Assembly (NCBI GenBank): GCA_000806115.1
Contig: JWKQ01000002.1
Span: 52,497-116,496, forward strand
Source: an archaeon GW2011_AR5
GTDB taxonomy: Archaea; Aenigmatarchaeota; Aenigmatarchaeia; GW2011-AR5
DNA: 64,000 bases
Direction: 5' to 3'
Below the pieces are notes generated by a model. The model had not been told where the DNA came from. It searched no databases and saw only the letters and a list, made by a program, of their open reading frames with translations. The translations under genes and the position numbers were made by a program. Shown piece by piece: positions 1,399 to 56,595 of the stretch. Position 1 is the first letter of the stretch. Every line of letters begins with the position of its first letter.

Positions 1399-2454
1399 TT
1401 ATAAAGATTGAGTGATTTTCTTCATGTTTTTTCTGATTCTGTTGCGAATCTTGTAAGTGTTTCCATGTACAGCGTAAGCGCACCATCCGCTGATTTTTGC
1501 GTCCAATTCTCCCTGTGATATGTTGCCGTTTTTGTAGTCTTCAGCAAGTTCTTCCATTCTGAGATTCATTGATCGCAAATTGCTCTTTTTCAGGAGCTTG
1601 TGGTGGTAAAAAATCCTGAACCCAAGAAAATTTGCTCCGCTGTGCAGTGCATATATTTTAGACTTATCTGGATGCAATTCAAGCTTCAGTGAATTTTTTA
1701 GAAATTCGTCTATTCTGGATTTCCACCATTCAAGAACCACTTTTTTGTCGTGCAGAATCACGAAATCATCAAGGTATCGTATGTAGAATCGTGCGCGGAG
1801 ATTATGCTTCACGAACTTGTCAAGCTCGTTGAGGTAAATGTTAGCGAAGAACTGTGATGTCAGGTTTCCTATGGGCATGCCTTTCCAGTTTTTAGTCGAA
1901 TGGTTTGCTACTATTTTCCTTATCAGGCTCATGACCTTATCGTCATTTATCTTCTTTGCCAGTATCTTTAGCAGTATTTCATGGTCAACTGTTTCAAAAT
2001 AGTGCCTTATATCGGCTTTTAGGAAGTACCCGATAGTCATGTTGCCGTCTTTGGCGTTCTTGACAAGTCGTCCGTTTTTGCTCGCTTTTCTCTTGAATGT
2101 GTCGAATCGTTTTATCGCTGCGTGAGTTCCTTTGCCTTTCCGGCTTGCATACGAATCATGTATGAATGATTTCTCGAAAAGCGGTTCTATGACGTTGCAT
2201 ATGGCATGGTGCACGACGCGGTCGCGAAAATGGGACGAGCTTATTGTCCTTGTCTTTGGGTCACGTATGACAAAATTCTTGAGGGGATGCGGCTGATAAG
2301 TGTCCGTCCTTAGTTCAGCCTCGAGCTTTGCCAGGTTCCTCTCAAGCTCTTTCTCGAATTTGTGCACATACCATTTTGAAGTCTTGTTTTTCCTTGCTTT
2401 CCTGTAAGCCAGAAGAAGGTTATCATAGGAGCAGATTTGATTATATAGATTCAT
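1399..2454 (-). mobile_element. Group II intron-type reverse transcriptase/maturase (RT + X domains, no endonuclease domain); possibly a free-standing group-II-like RT
   Basis: 351 aa. RT blocks are present: PIGNLTSQFFANIYL (RT4), RYLDDFVIL (RT5, YLDD rather than YADD) and LGFRI (RT7). A thumb/X-like GWCAYAVHGNTY follows. No space is left for intron domains V/VI before the next gene. Confidence 0.75.
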
Positions 2455-2939
2455 GAAAATCCCGGCAGGGCTGCTAGGACGAGAGGCAACCCTGTCAGTC
2501 GGCTCGCTTCTATGGAGGAACGATTTACCGGAGTTGAGCGGGTGCCTGTTCGCATTTGCGCTTCTTTTTCGAAGTCGGATGACGCATATGCGTCTGTTTG
2601 TTCCAAAAAGAATTGACGTTGAACCGGCCGTTTGCGAGTCTTGAGACTTGTCGCCGATGTCCGGGTTGAAGTTGCGCCCAACGAACCGTCTAGCTGCCTT
2701 ATCAAAGTCCTGAGACCACTGCTGCTTGAATTTGAAAAATTCTTGCAGATGTATTTTATGTCATCAGCGCCAGAGTGCGGCGCTTCGATATAAGGCAGCG
2801 TGTAGCCAGCTGCCGGGATAATTACACTTTCCAACACGTACACGACTTTAATCGCGGGTTCGCTTGGAAAATGGAATCCTGAATGCATCCCTGTATGTCG
2901 CCTGAAGACGGCAATTTCAGGCGCATTCAAGATGAACAA
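2451..2939 (-). other. Low-confidence ORF, probably chimeric; its C-terminal half is an out-of-frame read through a pseudogene fragment
   Basis: 162 aa. Its stop overlaps the RT start (ATGA). The low-complexity S/T-rich C-terminus coincides with the degenerate gene-fragment copy at 2476-2700. Confidence 0.2.
2476..2700 (-). pseudogene. Degenerate duplicate of the 3'-terminal coding region of CDS 3041-3754, with insertions and Asp-to-Asn substitutions
   Basis: Nucleotides 2476-2700 align to 3106-3215, with three insertions of about 20-70 nt. Translated in the homologous frame it gives FVGRNFNPDIGD...ANRHPLNSG...RVASRP, against FVGRDFDPDFGDYGRFYVLADRRPLDSGVDGVASRP in the intact gene. Confidence 0.45.
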
Positions 2940-3040
2940 GAAGGAAGAACTTAATATGTTATAAAAAGATCTATCTCTCTCTGGCGCTCGACAGGAAACA
3001 GAGGTTCATGTAACTTTCTTTGCGTGACTAGAATAAAAAA

Positions 3041-3754
3041 TTATGCCTTAGCTTCTGATGCAGTCCTGATGTCAATCTCGCCAATTACGTTATGTTCTGC
3101 ATAGGCGGGACGAGAGGCAACCCCGTCAACACCGGAGTCGAGCGGGCGCCTGTCCGCAAGGACGTAGAACCGGCCGTAGTCGCCGAAGTCCGGGTCGAAG
3201 TCGCGCCCAACGAACCTTTTGCCACCCTTGAAATTGTCAGGTCTGTAAAATCCTGATATTTCTACAGCAGGTAAGTCAAATTCTAAATAAGCTCTCTCTG
3301 CTTCTGCCCGCTCTTCGAAAGGCACTGTCTTTTCCGGAATGAGCGTGAACGGTTGGAAAAATCTATATCCTTTAACATTGTCCGCAATCGGGACAACCAG
3401 CCCTGGCTTTGGAGCCCATGCTTTGATGAGAATTTCATCGTCCCTGCCGTCATTTGACTTGTACAGGATAGGTATGTGTCCCTCGCTCGGAGACTGCTCG
3501 CCGCCGTGCATTCTGTCCTCTGCTGAATCATGCGTTATCTCTCCGTACCAGCTTCTTTTCCTGTCATTGTACCTCTTGACATCCCTGTCGTGAAAAGCGT
3601 TGTCAAATCTGTTGTGGCTGTATGCTGCAAAAATAGCATGACCAGGCGGTGCCTGCCTGTGAAGCTGTGCATAAGGGACTATGGTGCCCAGTTCCGGCAG
3701 TTCAAAAGGCACGTCAAACGAGCCCTTGTCTGTCAATACTCTGAAAACATCCAT
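3041..3754 (-). CDS. Hypothetical protein (no family recognised)
   Basis: 237 aa clean ORF with a protein-like composition. Its 3' end is duplicated as a degenerate fragment at 2476-2700. Confidence 0.45.
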   Translation of the reverse strand: MDVFRVLTDKGSFDVPFELPELGTIVPYAQLHRQAPPGHAIFAAYSHNRFDNAFHDRDVKRYNDRKRSWYGEITHDSAEDRMHGGEQSPSEGHIPILYKSNDGRDDEILIKAWAPKPGLVVPIADNVKGYRFFQPFTLIPEKTVPFEERAEAERAYLEFDLPAVEISGFYRPDNFKGGKRFVGRDFDPDFGDYGRFYVLADRRPLDSGVDGVASRPAYAEHNVIGEIDIRTASEAKA

Positions 3755-9395: not shown

Positions 9396-9497
9396 GAATT
9401 ATAGTTAACCCAGAAAAGATTTCGGACATGAATTCTGGGTTAACAGATAGCTCACAAGGAAGTAATATCCTGTTTAATTCCTTGTAGAGCTATAATC
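9396..9497. promoter_or_regulatory. Palindromic promoter element E1: hairpin-1 (gttaacccagaa/ttctgggttaac) + AGATAG + hairpin-2 (ctcacaagga/tccttgtagag) + CTATAAT
   Basis: A perfect 12 bp inverted repeat lies at 9404-9444 and a 10 bp-stem palindrome at 9451-9489. A minus-strand TATA-like aattatag sits at 9397-9404, about 30 nt upstream of the regulator ATG at 9368. The element is about 85% identical to the copy at 47303-47404. Confidence 0.6.
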
Positions 9498-9553
9498 AGC
9501 TGTTTAATTAACGCATAAGGGCTTTTAAGCATTCTGGGCAGCTTTGGCTGGCT

Positions 9554-25014: not shown

Positions 25015-25103
25015 ACGTTTTGCAGAAAGAGCAAAGCTCTTGCTGCATGTGAACAGGCGAGAATAAATATCCGAAATCTTTGCCTGTTCAGCTATAAATT
25101 CTT

Positions 25104-39873: not shown

Positions 39874-39916
39874 CATAGAACCCGGAATTCATGTATGAAT
39901 TCTTTTCTGGGTTCAT
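39874..39916. promoter_or_regulatory. Hairpin-1-type palindrome (gaacccgg...ctgggttc) upstream of the minus-strand gene start at 39835; a member of the E-element family
   Basis: tagaacccggaattcatgtatgaattcttttctgggttcat has the same AACCC...GAATTC/CATG...GGGTT structure as hairpin-1 of E1 and E3. Confidence 0.5.
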
Positions 39917-39917
39917 A

Positions 39918-41405
39918 CTATCCGGCGCATTTGTAAATGTCGAGGATTTTTACCGGCTTGTTTATAGTTGCCGAGACAGTGCAATTGTTTCTTGATGCAT
40001 ATTCAATAATATTTCCTCTCTCAAATCTTTCTTCTATGCTGCCATCAATGGCACAGTCTGCAGTCTCGTTGAACCGCTTGAAGTTCTGGTAGTAATAGCT
40101 TTCCAGCATGAAACGGTAATAGTTTCCCGCGTATACTGAGGTGCAATTTTCCCTGAGATAGGCTATTGTCTCTGTCATTCCCTCGGACGCCTTAGCTTCT
40201 GTGTCGAGCATGCCAAGCGGTTCCCAGAGCTGGTTATGGTACAGAACGTACGAAGGTGCGGCAAGCAGTGCCTGCACGAAGAGGGTTAATGATATGACGG
40301 CGATGAACATTGCCTGGCGTCTTTTCAGCAGACTGGCAGATCTCGCTGCGAGTATTCCCAAGAACGGGACCGCACCAGTTATATGACGATATGTTATATT
40401 TGTCAGCTGGAATGAGAGAAGAACAAGAAATACGATTGCAAACATAGCAATGAATTTGTCCTGTCTTGTTGGTTTTTTCGCCATACAGTATACGCTAAGC
40501 GCGAGCAGGAACAGGACAAGTATACTCTCCTTTGCAAGGAAAAGAAGGAGGTAGTTTATTGCAGGAAGCTTTAGGAGGATAGGGTACTCAACGTTCTCGA
40601 ACACGCTGGTGAATACTCTGCGTGAGAAGGACAGCAGGATTATTGGTACATCACCAGATATCTGCTGGCTTCTTATCTCATTGCCGTACTGTACAGATAT
40701 TGTTGCGTCAGTATGCAGCCTTGAGAAACCGAAGGGCCAGGCAGCAAGGAAAATGATAATCGCAAGCACGAATGATTTTAGTATCCAGTTGTCAATTCCG
40801 AGGTTGAAGCCGCGTCTGATAGAAAGCCTTATCCGCTTCTCATAAAGCGCATAGACAATTATGAATATGAATAGTATGATTGAGATGAATTTCGTGGCTA
40901 ATGCAAGCCCAAGAAAAATTCCGAGCCATGCAAAAGAATACTTTTTCTTCTCATGGACAGCCTGCCATGTAAAGAATGCCGCCATCACATAGAAGAAGCT
41001 AAGCATGGTTTCCTGCTGCACATATCTGCTGAATTGTATATGTATTATTGAGAATGCGGTTATTGCTGATGCAAAAAGTGCGGTATTTTCACCGTAAAGC
41101 TTTCTTGAAAGCAGGAACACAGCAAGTACTGTCAATATACCAAACACTGCTGAGACGATCCTCATGCTGGATTCTGTGTCATTTATCATGACAGCTGCGC
41201 CGAAAATATATTTCGCCAGCGGCGGTGTGTCAAAAATGTAGTAATTATTTACGAAATTTCCGCTTGCATACTCGTCAGAAGCCTGTTTCATCTCGACTTC
41301 GCTGTAGCTGTAAGTTTCCCATGAGAGATCCTGTACCCTGAGAAATGTGGCAAGAACAACAACAATAACAAGCGTGAGTAAAACCGTTTTTTGCGACATT
41401 GCCAT
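39918..41405 (-). CDS. GT-C fold membrane glycosyltransferase (family 39/83, PMT/ArnT-like)
   Basis: 495 aa, multi-TM. A DTPPL motif is near the N-terminus, and there is a C-terminal soluble region. Confidence 0.55.
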   Translation of the reverse strand: MAMSQKTVLLTLVIVVVLATFLRVQDLSWETYSYSEVEMKQASDEYASGNFVNNYYIFDTPPLAKYIFGAAVMINDTESSMRIVSAVFGILTVLAVFLLSRKLYGENTALFASAITAFSIIHIQFSRYVQQETMLSFFYVMAAFFTWQAVHEKKKYSFAWLGIFLGLALATKFISIILFIFIIVYALYEKRIRLSIRRGFNLGIDNWILKSFVLAIIIFLAAWPFGFSRLHTDATISVQYGNEIRSQQISGDVPIILLSFSRRVFTSVFENVEYPILLKLPAINYLLLFLAKESILVLFLLALSVYCMAKKPTRQDKFIAMFAIVFLVLLSFQLTNITYRHITGAVPFLGILAARSASLLKRRQAMFIAVISLTLFVQALLAAPSYVLYHNQLWEPLGMLDTEAKASEGMTETIAYLRENCTSVYAGNYYRFMLESYYYQNFKRFNETADCAIDGSIEERFERGNIIEYASRNNCTVSATINKPVKILDIYKCAG

Positions 41406-45969: not shown

Positions 45970-47292
45970 TCACCAGTCGTATTTGAATATTGGAAAGCCC
46001 TTGCACAGTTCTAATATATCCGACTTAACCCTTTCTTTTGTTGCGGCGTCGTTTGCGTGTTCGATTGCTTTAGAAATAAAGCCCGCTATATCCTTCATCT
46101 CGCTCTCCCTCATGCCTCTTGTTGTCAGTGCGGGAGTACCAAGCCTTATCCCGCTCGGATCATAAGGCTTTCTTGTGTCAAACGGTATAGTATTTTTGTT
46201 CACAGTTATGCAAACGTCTTCCAGCGCCTTCTCGGCTTCTCTTCCTGTTATGTTCTTGTTCTGGAGGTCGATGAGCATCAGGTGGTTGTCAGTCCCGTCA
46301 GTCACGAGCTTGAACCCGTGAGCCATGAGGGATTCCGCCAGCGTCTTTGCATTTTTAAGTATCTGCTGGGCATACCGTTTGAATCCCGGCTGCATGGCTT
46401 CGTGAAGGGCAACTGCAATTCCTGCTGTTGTATGATTATGAGGGCCGCCTTGAAGTCCGGGGAATATTGCCCTGTCAATTAGTGTGGGCAGATTTTCCCT
46501 CGGGTTAGCGCCGTCAGGAAGCGGTTTCAAAGGTTCTGACGGATTTCCGTTGCACATTATCATGCCGCCTCTAGGTCCTCGAAGCGTCTTGTGTGTAGTG
46601 GTTGTTATAACATCTGCGTGTCCTGCAGGTGATGGAACTACCTTGGCAGCAATCAATCCGGCCTCATGTGCGATGTCCGCGACGAAGTAAGAGTCTATGC
46701 TGTGCGCTATCTCGCCTAGCCGCTTGTAATCATAAATCCTCGGGTATGCTGTCGCTCCGCAGAATATCAGCTTTGGCCTTTCCTGTTTCGCCTGCGCTTC
46801 GAGCGCGTCGTAGTCTATCGTACCGTCTTGCCCTGTCTTGTAATTTACAGCATTATAAAATCTGCCAGAAAAATTCACATTCCAGCCGTGAGTAAGATGC
46901 CCGCCGAAAAACAGATGAAGTCCCATTACCTTGTCGCCCTGGTTGAGAAGCGCAAAGTATACCGCCTGATTTGCCGGACTGCCTGAGAGCGGCTGGACGT
47001 TTGCATGGCTCACGCCGAAAAGTTTTTTCGCGCGGTCAACGGCGAGCGATTCAATCTCGTCAATGAACTGGTTGCCTCCGTAATACCTTTTTCCCGGATA
47101 GCCTTCGGAATACTTGTTAGTAAGTATCGAGCCCATGGCTGCCAGAACAGAATCGCTTACATAATTCTCGGAAGGAATCATTTCAAGTCCGTTCTTCTGT
47201 CTGTTTGCCTCTTTTTGCATTGAAGTGTAAATTTCGGGGTCGGATTGCTCGAGCATATTGCCACCTTCTTTTTTAATTCTATAATCTGTCAT
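45970..47292 (-). CDS. glyA: Serine hydroxymethyltransferase (the start may be the second Met at 47256)
   Basis: 440 aa with the PLP-lysine region TTTTHKTLRGPRGG. The length is typical. Confidence 0.85.
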   Translation of the reverse strand: MTDYRIKKEGGNMLEQSDPEIYTSMQKEANRQKNGLEMIPSENYVSDSVLAAMGSILTNKYSEGYPGKRYYGGNQFIDEIESLAVDRAKKLFGVSHANVQPLSGSPANQAVYFALLNQGDKVMGLHLFFGGHLTHGWNVNFSGRFYNAVNYKTGQDGTIDYDALEAQAKQERPKLIFCGATAYPRIYDYKRLGEIAHSIDSYFVADIAHEAGLIAAKVVPSPAGHADVITTTTHKTLRGPRGGMIMCNGNPSEPLKPLPDGANPRENLPTLIDRAIFPGLQGGPHNHTTAGIAVALHEAMQPGFKRYAQQILKNAKTLAESLMAHGFKLVTDGTDNHLMLIDLQNKNITGREAEKALEDVCITVNKNTIPFDTRKPYDPSGIRLGTPALTTRGMRESEMKDIAGFISKAIEHANDAATKERVKSDILELCKGFPIFKYDW

Positions 47293-47302
47293 TTTTAATA
47301 GG

Positions 47303-47404
47303 TATATAGTGAACCCACAAACATGCCTGAATTCTTTTGTGGGTTCACAGATAGCTCACAAGGGAGTGATATTATCCAGATTATTTCCTTGTAGAGCTAT
47401 AATC
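47303..47404. promoter_or_regulatory. Palindromic promoter element E3 (hairpin-1 gtgaacccacaaa/tttgtgggttcac + AGATAG + hairpin-2 + CTATAAT), upstream of glyA; it overlaps the last 15 codons of the 5-FCL gene
   Basis: About 85% identical to E1 over about 100 nt. There is a perfect 13 bp inverted repeat at 47309-47348. The 5-FCL stop codon (47356-47358) lies inside the element. Confidence 0.6.
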
Positions 47405-47928
47405 CGTTCCTCCGTAAGTATCATGTCAACAGGCACGTCATTGCTTTCCGTGTCGATTTTGTCCACTATCTGGAAGTCGAACGCGAGTGCTATTTTCTTG
47501 CCGGCGGTTTTTGCAAGGAACCTGTCAAAATATCCGCCGCCGCGTCCTATGCGGTTGCCGTTTTTGTCAAAAGCCGTGCCCGGAATTATAATCACGTCGA
47601 ATTCATTTTTGGCTGAAACTTCCATCGGCTCCGGAATGCCGAAAGCGCCCGACTTGAGTCCGCTGCTGAATGTCCCTGGCACGATGTCGCCGTCCCTGAT
47701 GACAGGACAGTAGACATTCTTTCCCAGTTTTACGGATTCGCGAATCACTTCCGACGTATCGACTTCGTGCATGTCTGACAGGTAAATGAATATGTCGCCG
47801 GCAGTCTGAAAGTCCTCGAGCAAAATGAGCCTTTCCTTTATGATTCCGCTCTTTATTTTCATGTTGGTATGGGATTTTAACTCTTCGGATTTCTGTTTTC
47901 TGACTGTTCTTTTGTCCGTGTGTATCAC
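47356..47928 (-). CDS. 5-formyltetrahydrofolate cyclo-ligase
   Basis: 190 aa with a GRGGGYFDR motif. The C-terminal 15 residues are encoded by repeat element E3. Confidence 0.7.
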   Translation of the reverse strand: MIHTDKRTVRKQKSEELKSHTNMKIKSGIIKERLILLEDFQTAGDIFIYLSDMHEVDTSEVIRESVKLGKNVYCPVIRDGDIVPGTFSSGLKSGAFGIPEPMEVSAKNEFDVIIIPGTAFDKNGNRIGRGGGYFDRFLAKTAGKKIALAFDFQIVDKIDTESNDVPVDMILTEERIIALQGNNLDNITPL

Positions 47929-48755
47929 CTGTTTTGCACCAGATACGCATTCAGGGTGTTCTGCACCAGCATAGCTACCGTCATGGGTCCGACACCGCCG
48001 GGCACCGGCGTAATTGCAGCCGCCTTTTCCTTTACAGAAGCGTCTGCGTCGCCTACGAGCTTTTTGCCGTCCCTGTTTATGCCGACATCTATAATTATTG
48101 CATTTTCTTTTATCATGTCGCCCTTCAGGTAATTCGGCTTGCCGACTGCAACAATTACTATATCAGAATTCTTCGTTATATTTTCTATGTTCTTCGTTTT
48201 AGTGTGACACATTGTAACGGTAGCATCCCTGTTGTAAAGCATGGAATAGAGCGGCTTGCCAACATGCGCGCTTCTGCCTATGATTGCAACGTTGGCGCCG
48301 CTTATCTTTGTATTTTCTTCGAGAATTTTGATTATGCCGTACGGTGTGCATGCCGGCATGCTTTCGTCGCCGTAAGCGAGTCTTCCGAGATTGAAGGGAT
48401 GCATGCCGTCGACATCTTTCATCGGATCCAGAAGTTCAATGAATTTCTGTGTGTCGAGCCCGGGGAGGGGAAGCTGGATGAGTACGCCATTTACTGACAT
48501 GTCATTGTTTAGTTTTTTTAGAAGACTTGCCAGAGATTCTCCGTCGTCCGCTCTGTGTATCTCTGCCTGCATTCCGACCGACTCGCATGTCTTTTTTTTA
48601 ATCTTCACGTATGTCAGAGAAGCTGGATCGTTGCCGACAAGTATAGTTGCTAGTTTTGGTTTGATGCTGTTTTCTCTAATATATTTTTTTGTCTCTGAAA
48701 GGTATTTGTCAGCCGTCCTTTTTCCGTCTATGATTTTGCATGACATCCAAATCAT
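47925..48755 (-). CDS. folD: Bifunctional 5,10-methylene-THF dehydrogenase / 5,10-methenyl-THF cyclohydrolase
   Basis: 276 aa with the FolD signatures (GKRTADKYL..., VGNDPASLTYV, GGVGPMT). Confidence 0.85.
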   Translation of the reverse strand: MIWMSCKIIDGKRTADKYLSETKKYIRENSIKPKLATILVGNDPASLTYVKIKKKTCESVGMQAEIHRADDGESLASLLKKLNNDMSVNGVLIQLPLPGLDTQKFIELLDPMKDVDGMHPFNLGRLAYGDESMPACTPYGIIKILEENTKISGANVAIIGRSAHVGKPLYSMLYNRDATVTMCHTKTKNIENITKNSDIVIVAVGKPNYLKGDMIKENAIIIDVGINRDGKKLVGDADASVKEKAAAITPVPGGVGPMTVAMLVQNTLNAYLVQNR

Positions 48756-55252: not shown

Positions 55253-55384
55253 GTTATCACCCTGTAAGAAACACCAGAATTCTAAATTCATGTCTAGGTT
55301 CTTAAGTTAATAACACGACAATTTATTTTAAAGTGACATTGGTACAAGCTTCAAAATAAGAACGTCAAAAATCTGTTTTTTAAA

Positions 55385-55457
55385 GTGAATCCAGTAAGTT
55401 TATGTGTGGATTCACTTATAGTTCCTAAGGACAGTTTTTCCTTGGAGAACTATATAG
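55385..55457 (+). promoter_or_regulatory. Diverged palindromic promoter element E4 (hairpin gtgaatccag/tgtgtggattcac + TTATAG + palindrome ttcctaagga/tccttggagaa + CTATATAG TATA), 23-30 nt upstream of the ATG at 55480
   Basis: It has the same two-hairpin + TATA architecture as E1/E3 but a diverged sequence. The direct repeat tatagttcctaa occurs twice. Confidence 0.45.
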
Positions 55458-55479: not shown

Positions 55480-56595
55480 ATGAGGATTGCTCTTTGCACG
55501 GAAATATTGTACCCTCTTTATGGCGTTGAGCGTCGTGTGTACGAGTTTGCGAGGCGTCTGCCGAAGTACGGTTTTGACGTCGAAGTCCTTACGTCCACGC
55601 AGCGCAGCCATTTCAAGCGCCTGAAAATCATCCAGGTAAGCAGGTGCACCATAACAAACCCGCCAAAGCGCAACTACGCTTTCTGCGCAAACTACATGTT
55701 CAGCCTTTTCCGCCAGCTCATGAAGCGCGATTATGATTTGGTGAATGCCGAAGGCCACCTTTCGCTGATTCCGTGTTCGGCTGCTGCTTCTTTGCGCAAG
55801 AAGGTTTCAATAGCGACGATACACGACCTATATCTCAGCGAATGGGGTAGCATGTACAAGAGCGCAGCCTCCCTGGCGGGTCTTCCGTTCGAGGCTGTGT
55901 CATGCAGGATGCCGTTCGACCACGTTCTTACAGTCAATTCTTCCCTGAAGGAAAAAATGAGCTCGGTTCTGAAAATACCCGAGAGAAAAGTGGAAATCCT
56001 GCACAGCGGGATTGACACGGGGTATATCGACTCTGTGAAAGGAAATGGGAAGGACGGTTCTGTAGTTTATGTCGGGCGCCTTGTGCCGCAGAAGGGCATT
56101 GAAATGCTTATCCGTTCATACGCAGTCCTCCCTGAAAATATAAGAAAATCTCACGAACTGAAGATAATCGGCGAAGGCTCGGAGCGCGGCAGGCTCGAAT
56201 CTCTTGCAAAGTCGCTCGGGATTTCAGTCAATTTCACCGGAAAGATAGAGAAGCATGAAGACGTGCTGAAGGAGCTGAAAAAAGCGTCCCTGTTCGTCCT
56301 GCCTTCCGTGCGCGAGAGCTTTGGCATCACAATACTTGAGGCGATGTGCTGCGGGGTGCCGGTAATTTCAACAAGAACAGAAGGCCCGTCGGACCACATA
56401 AGGGACGGCGAGACGGGTTTCCTAGTCGGCGACGGTAGTGGGATGGCAGAAAAGATGGAACTGGTTCTGTCAAGCAGCGTGCTCCGGAAAAAACTGTCAA
56501 GGAACGGCAGGGAATATGCGGCAAAGCACGACTGGGAAAACATCACGAAGAACGTGGCGGGTGTCTACAAAAAAGTTTATGAGAGAAAGCACTAA
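55480..56595 (+). CDS. Glycosyltransferase family 4
   Basis: 371 aa with a GT-B C-terminal EGFGITILEAMCCGVPVIST motif. Confidence 0.7.
   Translation: MRIALCTEILYPLYGVERRVYEFARRLPKYGFDVEVLTSTQRSHFKRLKIIQVSRCTITNPPKRNYAFCANYMFSLFRQLMKRDYDLVNAEGHLSLIPCSAAASLRKKVSIATIHDLYLSEWGSMYKSAASLAGLPFEAVSCRMPFDHVLTVNSSLKEKMSSVLKIPERKVEILHSGIDTGYIDSVKGNGKDGSVVYVGRLVPQKGIEMLIRSYAVLPENIRKSHELKIIGEGSERGRLESLAKSLGISVNFTGKIEKHEDVLKELKKASLFVLPSVRESFGITILEAMCCGVPVISTRTEGPSDHIRDGETGFLVGDGSGMAEKMELVLSSSVLRKKLSRNGREYAAKHDWENITKNVAGVYKKVYERKH

Follow-up and report, generated by a model that had tools for sequence, protein, structure and literature searches.

A miniature TA-flanked repeat element very probably inserted into the end of the 5-formyltetrahydrofolate cyclo-ligase gene of archaeon GW2011_AR5

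The Correia elements (CREE), which are MITEs (miniature transposable elements with inverted repeats) of Neisseria, duplicate a TA target and have termini starting with TATAG. Ogata et al. are said to have described in 2000 how the Rickettsia palindromic elements (RPEs) insert into protein-coding genes and are translated within the product. Correia elements measure 104-157 bp (PMC3184786), carry outward-facing promoter sequences at their ends and in some strains are inserted in coding sequences (PMC10969869), and RPEs are palindromic repeats of 105-146 nt (PMC3184786). The archaeal MITEs (SM1-4 of Sulfolobus and those of Halobacterium, Haloquadratum and others) are small, non-autonomous and presumed to be mobilised in trans by transposases of insertion sequences (IS) (PMC10969869). 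Here we describe an element of comparable size, E3, in a 64,000-nt stretch (the window) of the genome of archaeon GW2011_AR5, a member of the Aenigmatarchaeota (DPANN). E3 lies across the 3′ end of the gene for 5-formyltetrahydrofolate cyclo-ligase (5-FCL), just upstream of glyA, and very probably represents a fixed insertion of a MITE-like element.

The 5-FCL gene is part of a conserved, tightly packed string of minus-strand genes (UDP-GlcNAc 2-epimerase, folD, 5-FCL, glyA, GT2 and PMT-type glycosyltransferase), and E3 is antisense to folD, 5-FCL and glyA. The features of the junction, in window coordinates, are the following:
47925-48755, minus strand: folD, overlapping the start of the 5-FCL gene by 4 nt
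47356-47928, minus strand: 5-FCL gene, 190 aa (Pfam PF01812; match to the AR5 protein)
47356-47397, minus strand: 13 element-encoded codons of 5-FCL (ALQGNNLDNITPL, 47359-47397) and its stop codon TGA (47356-47358)
47400-47401: TA at the hairpin-2 end of E3, assigned as target-site duplication by comparison of filled and empty sites and by the TA...TA flanks
47307-47399, plus strand: E3, a short-form copy of 93 nt (TAG...CTA), covariance model score 80.5 bits, E 3e-17
47352-47399: hairpin 2 of E3, TAGCTCACAAGG...CCTTGTAGAGCTA, with a bulged A
47309-47348: hairpin 1 of E3, arms GTGAACCCACAAA and TTTGTGGGTTCAC, 13-bp stem
47305-47306: TA at the hairpin-1 end of E3, assigned as target-site duplication by comparison of filled and empty sites
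47279-47302, minus strand: fossil of the ancestral 5-FCL end, CCT ATT AAA AAT GAC AGA TTA TAG (PIKNDRL and stop)
45970-47256, minus strand: glyA (SHMT), Pfam PF00464, 428 aa in relatives and other assemblies

The 5-FCL product is 100% identical to the annotated 5-formyltetrahydrofolate cyclo-ligase of archaeon GW2011_AR5, and PF01812 spans its residues 6-173 of 190 (E 1e-37). Its C-terminus reads ...IIALQGNNLDNITPL before the stop (in the longer reading ...TEERIIALQGNNLDNITPL). The nearest syntenic relatives (L001-L004), whose 5-FCL is 86% or 82% identical, end in ...TEERII-PIKNDRL or -SIKNDRL, followed by the stop. The codons for this end are still present in the window, on the far side of the element: in gene orientation we read CGG ATT ATA (element) TA TA CCT ATT AAA AAT GAC AGA TTA TAG AATTA AAAAAGAAGGTGGCAAT ATG, and the segment 47279-47302 matches the 3′ coding end of L001 exactly and that of L004 almost completely. 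At the level of the target, the empty site of the relatives (GGAT-TA-TACC) corresponds to a filled site in the window, GGAT-TA-[TAG...CTA]-TA-TACC. The TA at 47400-47401 overlaps the ancestral isoleucine codons, ATA (47398-47400) and the third base of ATT (47401-47403). Because the same 24 nt that end the relatives' gene follow the element in the window, seven native 5-FCL codons appear to have been replaced by 13 element codons and a TGA.

An earlier interpretation of the window made from the letters alone (the sequence-only reading) had assigned the ORF at 47356-47928 to 5-FCL with its C-terminal codons inside a repeat, and had proposed that the gene owes its C-terminus and stop to an element that inserted at its 3′ end. 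The Pfam and covariance-model scores bear out the former, and the fossil end together with the relatives' empty site bears out the latter. The two checks that it suggested agree, and the condition that it set for its own refutation turns out in its favour: orthologues with no element at this site end in IIPIKNDRL, IISIKNDRL or other sequences, and TA is found at both ends of E3. Several details have to be revised. The repeat shared with copy E1 is genuine (98 bits for E1, 80.5 for E3), but the identity, given as ~85%, is 77% (72/94), or 82% once an inverted hairpin-1 loop is corrected; the element is 93 nt long rather than 100 nt; it provides the stop and 13 codons instead of 15, the two isoleucine codons being ancestral; and the stop, rather than lying strictly between the two hairpins, is part of the outer hairpin-2 stem (GCTCAC), with the linker a few bases away. 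The lower identity to E1 is due to the hairpin-1 loop of E3, the reverse complement of the loop found in every one of the 43 other canonical copies. The flip is fixed in 8/8 assemblies and is most simply explained by recombination, or by template switching, between the two arms of the perfect 13-bp stem.

The 181-nt junction is identical in eight independent metagenome assemblies made from different samples; the arrangement is therefore real, fixed in the AR5 population and no assembly artefact. Scans of JGI metagenomes for a doubly empty site of the AR5 type and for the E3/5-FCL junction gave no match; the population is apparently absent there and is present in ENA.

The relatives L001-L004 have a copy of their own near the same gene end. 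It is a long-form copy of 143 nt, placed in the opposite orientation at a different TA ~30 nt away, five bases past their stop, and the window is empty at that position (TAGAAT-TA-AAAAA versus TAGAAT-TA-[element]-TA-AAAA in the relatives). E3 is of the short form and of a different subfamily (stem CCCACAAA/TTTGTGGG, CACAAA/TTTGTG; loop CCAGATT). Its identity to a copy from another genome reaches 93.5% (loop-corrected), whereas to the L004 copy it is only 84%. Since subfamily, orientation and site all differ, the two copies are best regarded as independent insertions. The more distant relatives L051-L055 (52-57% identity) keep the synteny without any element, and their 5-FCL and glyA genes are separated by -4 to 17 nt, so that the compact arrangement is ancestral. 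In the groundwater assembly ERZ27254845 the AR5 type occurs with both sister types, the P0002 and P0003 lineages (L002, L004, L056, L060); thus three related populations, each with its own element arrangement and insertion state, coexist there.

E3 is one of six copies or fragments (E1-E6) in the window. The other five are:
9402-9492, plus strand: E1, complete copy of the short form, located in a divergent intergenic region, 98 bits
9534-9608, plus strand: E2, 5′-degenerate copy (covariance model; comparison with L058)
25046-25098, minus strand: E6, solo hairpin-1-like copy with a TTATAG terminus (weak model match, E ~0.05)
39876-39920, minus strand: E4, solo hairpin-1 copy (weak model match)
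55383-55452, plus strand: E5, diverged compact copy with both hairpins kept by compensatory changes, 42 bits, E 5e-8

The PMT gene (39918-41405) stops with a TAG at which E4 directly begins, and this stop codon may be element-derived as well.

In all, the family has copies in at least 15 Aenigmatarchaeota genomes. An exact-pattern scan with the hairpin-2 arms over 185,579 species genomes yielded 46 loci, all of them in Aenigmatarchaeota metagenome-assembled genomes (MAGs) and distributed over 12 assemblies, a count that excludes AR5 and its two closest relatives; further, more diverged copies were found by a covariance model built from 36 copies (E3 aligned with 35 others). The short form has two hairpins and 88-95 nt (~92), while the long form has four hairpins and 140-145 nt (~143), the extra two being located between the outer ones. 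With the termini written as TA-TAGTGAAC...GTAGAGCTA-TA, all 49 of the 49 copies with unique flanks are bounded by TA-TAG...CTA-TA. T is found at position -1 in 39/49 of them and A at +3 in 43/49, with random composition farther out; the preferred insertion context is T-TA-A.

Four pairs of filled and empty sites, among them L005 versus L013 and L011 versus L034/L032, fit the insertion of the element with one extra TA. Presence and absence at orthologous sites is seen for the window against L001/L004 against L051-L055, for E2 against L057/L058 and for E5 against L035. Recent mobility of the family is indicated by two copies of a single genome (L005 and L044), which are identical at 92/92 positions and have different flanks. 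The genes beside the copies are, with few exceptions, unrelated (KaiC, Ni-SOD, T2SS-F, NYN, metallophosphoesterase, glycosyltransferases and radical SAM), and the copies are located upstream of genes, downstream of genes and inside gene ends. The small size and lack of coding capacity, the many sharp-ended copies with unrelated flanks, the target duplication and the orthologous presence and absence lead us to conclude that E3 is very probably a fixed insertion of a non-autonomous, TA-duplicating MITE-like element, whose family is widespread in Aenigmatarchaeota. The behaviour of a small mobile element, which the sequence-only reading had attributed to E3, is thus in line with the TA duplication, the TA flanks of the 49 copies and the filled and empty pairs.

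The structure of the element is conserved along with its ends. Of the 14 pairs of hairpin 1, six show changes in both partners (47 cells, a value reached in 0/500 shuffles), and in diverged copies, for instance E5 (GTTCCTAAGG/CCTTGGAGAAC), compensatory changes preserve hairpin 2 with its bulged A. As covariation preserves the hairpins, we infer that folded or palindromic ends matter for transposition. One half of the element is a diverged, inverted version of the other: against the model, the reverse strand scores 31-37 bits. The predicted centroid fold of a 161-nt RNA contains both hairpins of E3 (z -2.8; the element as DNA gives z -6.9), and these hairpins would sit in the operon mRNA between 5-FCL and glyA.

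Several observations weigh against a MITE-type insertion. The terminal inverted repeats are weak, with a perfect match confined to TAG/CTA and agreement at 11/20 terminal positions, and the element as a whole shows modest two-fold symmetry (z ~3 versus shuffles). A duplication of 2 nt is formally indistinguishable from an asymmetric element inserted with no duplication. The empty sites of L004 and the window differ by one A in a homopolymer. No transposase or autonomous partner was seen near the copies, Pfam searches of 10 neighbouring ORFs giving only housekeeping domains, and no repeated IS-like protein emerged when the 350 ORFs of the loci (~0.4 Mb) were compared all against all by BLAST. 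Finally, that two sister lineages each acquired an insertion of their own, 30 nt from one another, is a coincidence, although a second such case exists. In the divergent spacer between the radical-SAM and GT4 genes, the window (55383-55452, E5) and L035 (2296-2387) have copies at different sites and in opposite orientations; E5 faces the GT4 gene, 27 nt from its ATG, and the L035 copy faces the radical-SAM gene at a distance of 23 nt. With this second independent pair in one spacer, AT-rich spacers of this kind are repeatedly hit. A target-site duplication of TATA or TTAA in place of TA was also considered and was rejected, since it fits neither E3 nor the L011 pair of filled and empty sites.

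Like the Correia elements, the E family has two size classes (~100 and ~150 nt in Correia), a high copy number and a location mostly just upstream of genes. The sequences are unrelated and the host of Correia is bacterial; Correia elements have 26-bp terminal inverted repeats and sigma-70 boxes, whereas in E elements the internal hairpins number two to four, the terminal repeats are weak and the end is of an archaeal TATA type. RPEs, again unrelated in sequence, add peptide segments in-frame and internally, while E3 replaces a C-terminus and supplies the stop. Known archaeal MITE families are tied to IS partners, and for the E family no partner was found in the ~0.4 Mb of loci. REP (repetitive extragenic palindromic) elements and REPINs with their RAYT transposases share with the E family imperfect hairpins, a short conserved 5′ head, inverted pairs, extragenic location and multiple copies, but REPs have no target duplication and E copies are flanked by duplicated TA. 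The alteration of a gene end by a MITE is a known behaviour, seen with Correia elements and RPEs (PMC10969869, PMC3184786). In the literature searched for MITEs of Aenigmarchaeota and DPANN we found neither a MITE reported from this phylum nor a description of this abundant repeat family, which apparently is undescribed, though of a well-known kind.

The course of events at the 5-FCL gene can be proposed as follows. In the AR5 lineage, a copy mobilised in trans by a transposase would have inserted at the TA of ...ATT A-TA-CCT... (Ile-Ile-Pro), a site seven codons short of the 5-FCL stop. From the native Ile-Ile, translation would now continue into the element, read its 13 codons and terminate in the hairpin-2 stem, at the TGA; the seven ancestral codons with their stop would have been displaced downstream, where they would remain as an untranslated fossil. 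The TA duplication and the preference for T-TA-A point to a transposase of the IS630/Tc1-mariner type. The chimeric enzyme is probably still functional, because the change falls past the Pfam domain and affects a tail whose length and sequence differ between homologues.

On the downstream side, glyA, which would once have been within 20-odd bases of the 5-FCL stop, is 99 nt away in the window. Its true start is the ATG at 47254-47256, with a Shine-Dalgarno GGTGG at 47261-47265; the start at 47292, which gives the longest ORF (440 aa), is spurious, the first 12 codons being fossil 5-FCL codons in another frame. Most likely glyA is still expressed by read-through of the operon from its own GGTGG site. 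The sequence-only reading had seen in the element a part of the glyA promoter, with a minus-strand TATA at the hairpin-1 end, and had coupled the folate genes to a factor acting at the 9.4 kb locus. Neither finds support here. Read-through is the simpler account, given the conserved packed gene string, the retained GGTGG site and the lack of an oligo-T tract after the E3 hairpins on the sense strand. The supposed TATA consists of the element terminus, the duplicated TA and the flank (CTA-TA-TACC), and the promoter-like end of E3 is the other one: at hairpin 2 the terminal CTA, the TA and an A form an outward-facing TATA-like end, which faces into 5-FCL on the antisense strand and away from glyA. 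As for the coupling, copies of the element adjoin unrelated genes, which fits the dispersal of a transposon and not a regulon.

Across the family, a related pattern is seen at the hairpin-2 end. The hairpin-2 end is 26-28 nt upstream of an ATG (ORFs ≥100 aa lacking a Shine-Dalgarno) in 10 of ~62 copies, and the hairpin-1 end is at this distance from a start codon in none, a bias of 10:0; for hairpin 2 the binomial p is ~2e-10 versus all positions and 8e-7 versus all TATAA sites. A TATA box ~27 nt before the ATG is expected for leaderless archaeal genes, and ordinary promoters of the window have TTTAAA or TTTATAA ~27 nt before the ATG with no Shine-Dalgarno. The hairpin-2 end of E2 (CTA-TA-AA) is 27 nt upstream of the ATG (9636) of a TIM-barrel gene. 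In the element-free orthologue L058 (1432-1500), TTTATAAA is followed by 23 nt and the ATG, and the E2 region of the window reads [element...C]TATAAA, 23 nt and the ATG. For E5 the hairpin-2 end is 27 nt upstream of the GT4 gene ATG at 55480. We conclude that the element prefers T-TA-A sites such as TATA boxes, and that its hairpin-2 end rebuilds CTATAA(A) at the original distance from the start codon of leaderless genes. Rebuilding of the TATA box in place would explain why many copies in promoters are tolerated. The sequence CTTTTA at 9522-9527, to the left of E2 (which lost ~30 nt on its hairpin-1 side), may be the other half of a split TATA box.

The same 10:0 bias at -27, together with the superposition of the E2 box on the native TATA box of the orthologue, can be carried further. 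The hairpin-2 arm with CTATAA may be a portable promoter/operator cassette that places dozens of unrelated genes of the reduced DPANN genomes under one DNA-binding factor, possibly the transposase or a domesticated relative of it; the outward promoter of E3 would then fire antisense into 5-FCL and folD. We consider such a role possible and rather doubtful.

As regards the mechanism of movement, the main rival to a transposase with DDE chemistry is an HUH enzyme (Y1, RAYT or IS200/IS605 type) moving REP/REPIN-like hairpin doublets. The sequence (TA)TAG precedes each hairpin and is reminiscent of the GTAG head of REPs; the hairpins are imperfect, covary and retain a bulged A; solo hairpins (E4 and E6) and the modular long form are observed; and the inverted relation of the two halves fits as well. 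HUH elements, however, insert without target duplication, and this is difficult to reconcile with the four filled and empty comparisons that show an extra TA and with the symmetric TA...TA on every copy. In addition, a search of the ~0.4 Mb of loci, which was not exhaustive, showed no Y1 or RAYT gene near the copies. Movement by an HUH enzyme is thus unlikely.

It could also be argued that the copies never transposed and make up a conserved cis-regulatory module, an operator or a structured leader RNA, that co-regulates glyA and folate metabolism with the 9.4 kb locus. Such a module would account for hairpin 2, an inverted repeat with 22 conserved nt abutting a TATA-like box, for the promoter position at 10 or more genes and for the covariation that keeps the hairpins. 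It would leave the functionally unrelated neighbouring genes, the absence of the element from orthologous outgroup loci, the orientation of E3 opposite to that of the closest relatives' copy, the TA duplications with their filled and empty pairs, and the identical copies with different flanks in one genome without explanation. Rfam contains no matching family: a search of the whole window at the gathering threshold and of both element regions up to E 10 gave nothing relevant, the best E-values over the element (0.2-7) belonging to unrelated miRNA, snoRNA and sRNA models. An RNA module meets the further difficulty that promoter copies are upstream of the predicted transcription start and hence outside the transcript. 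We regard the module as quite improbable in place of transposition, though an operator role may exist on top of mobility. A riboswitch or leader RNA was dropped as a candidate, in view of the orientation inverted between lineages and of the signatures of a mobile element.

Rearrangement of the relatives' intergenic copy in place, by inversion between TATA-like repeats, would produce E3 with no new insertion. TATA palindromes do flank all segments, the hairpin-1 loop of E3, owing to its unique flip, has the same orientation relative to the genes as in the relatives' copy, and Correia elements have been reported to invert (PMC10969869). At least three separate inversions would be needed to restore the order and orientation of the fossil segments, however, and they would explain neither the different subfamily of E3 (84% identity to the long-form copy versus 93.5% elsewhere) nor the clean empty site where the relatives' copy sits, which makes this scenario very unlikely. 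That the long C-terminus is ancestral and was lost in the relatives, or that the junction is an assembly chimera, is scarcely credible: beyond the ORF itself nothing speaks for it, and it is contradicted by the fossil PIKNDRL codons downstream, by the lack of the tail in all outgroups and by the identity of the eight assemblies.

If E3 is the insertion that we propose, the end of a housekeeping enzyme was rewritten by a miniature transposon without being destroyed, and the discarded codons are still adjacent to it. Gene callers are misled at such places, as the false glyA start and the chimeric 5-FCL tail illustrate, and repeats of this kind would be expected to fragment MAG assemblies. The preference for TATA boxes and their rebuilding may influence how promoters are built in archaeal genomes of very small size. 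No new regulatory link among the folate genes is revealed.

Other repeats and putative mobile elements were also observed. One copy of the family (L011:460-506; compare L034:4430-4498 and L032:2008-2057) is inserted into a short repeated palindrome, AAGCCTTTTCTTTGAAAAAGAAAATCCTTAA, which recurs in other Aenigmatarchaeota genomes and may represent either another family of repeats or a motif resembling a terminator.

At the left end of the window there is a reverse transcriptase ORF (1399-2454, Pfam RVT_1) and a match to the Rfam RT-16 RNA (2685-2816, minus strand, 52 bits). Two 51-nt repeats, 2650-2700 and 3179-3229, are 82% identical, the second being near the 3′ end of the ORF 3041-3754, which is upstream of the reverse transcriptase and has no Pfam match. 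The region 1399-3754 looks like a diversity-generating retroelement, with 2650-2700 as the template-like repeat. Adjoining it on the minus strand, the ORF 271-1353 (360 aa) has a LAGLIDADG-like domain and a C-terminal helix-turn-helix, and may encode a protein of the homing-endonuclease type.

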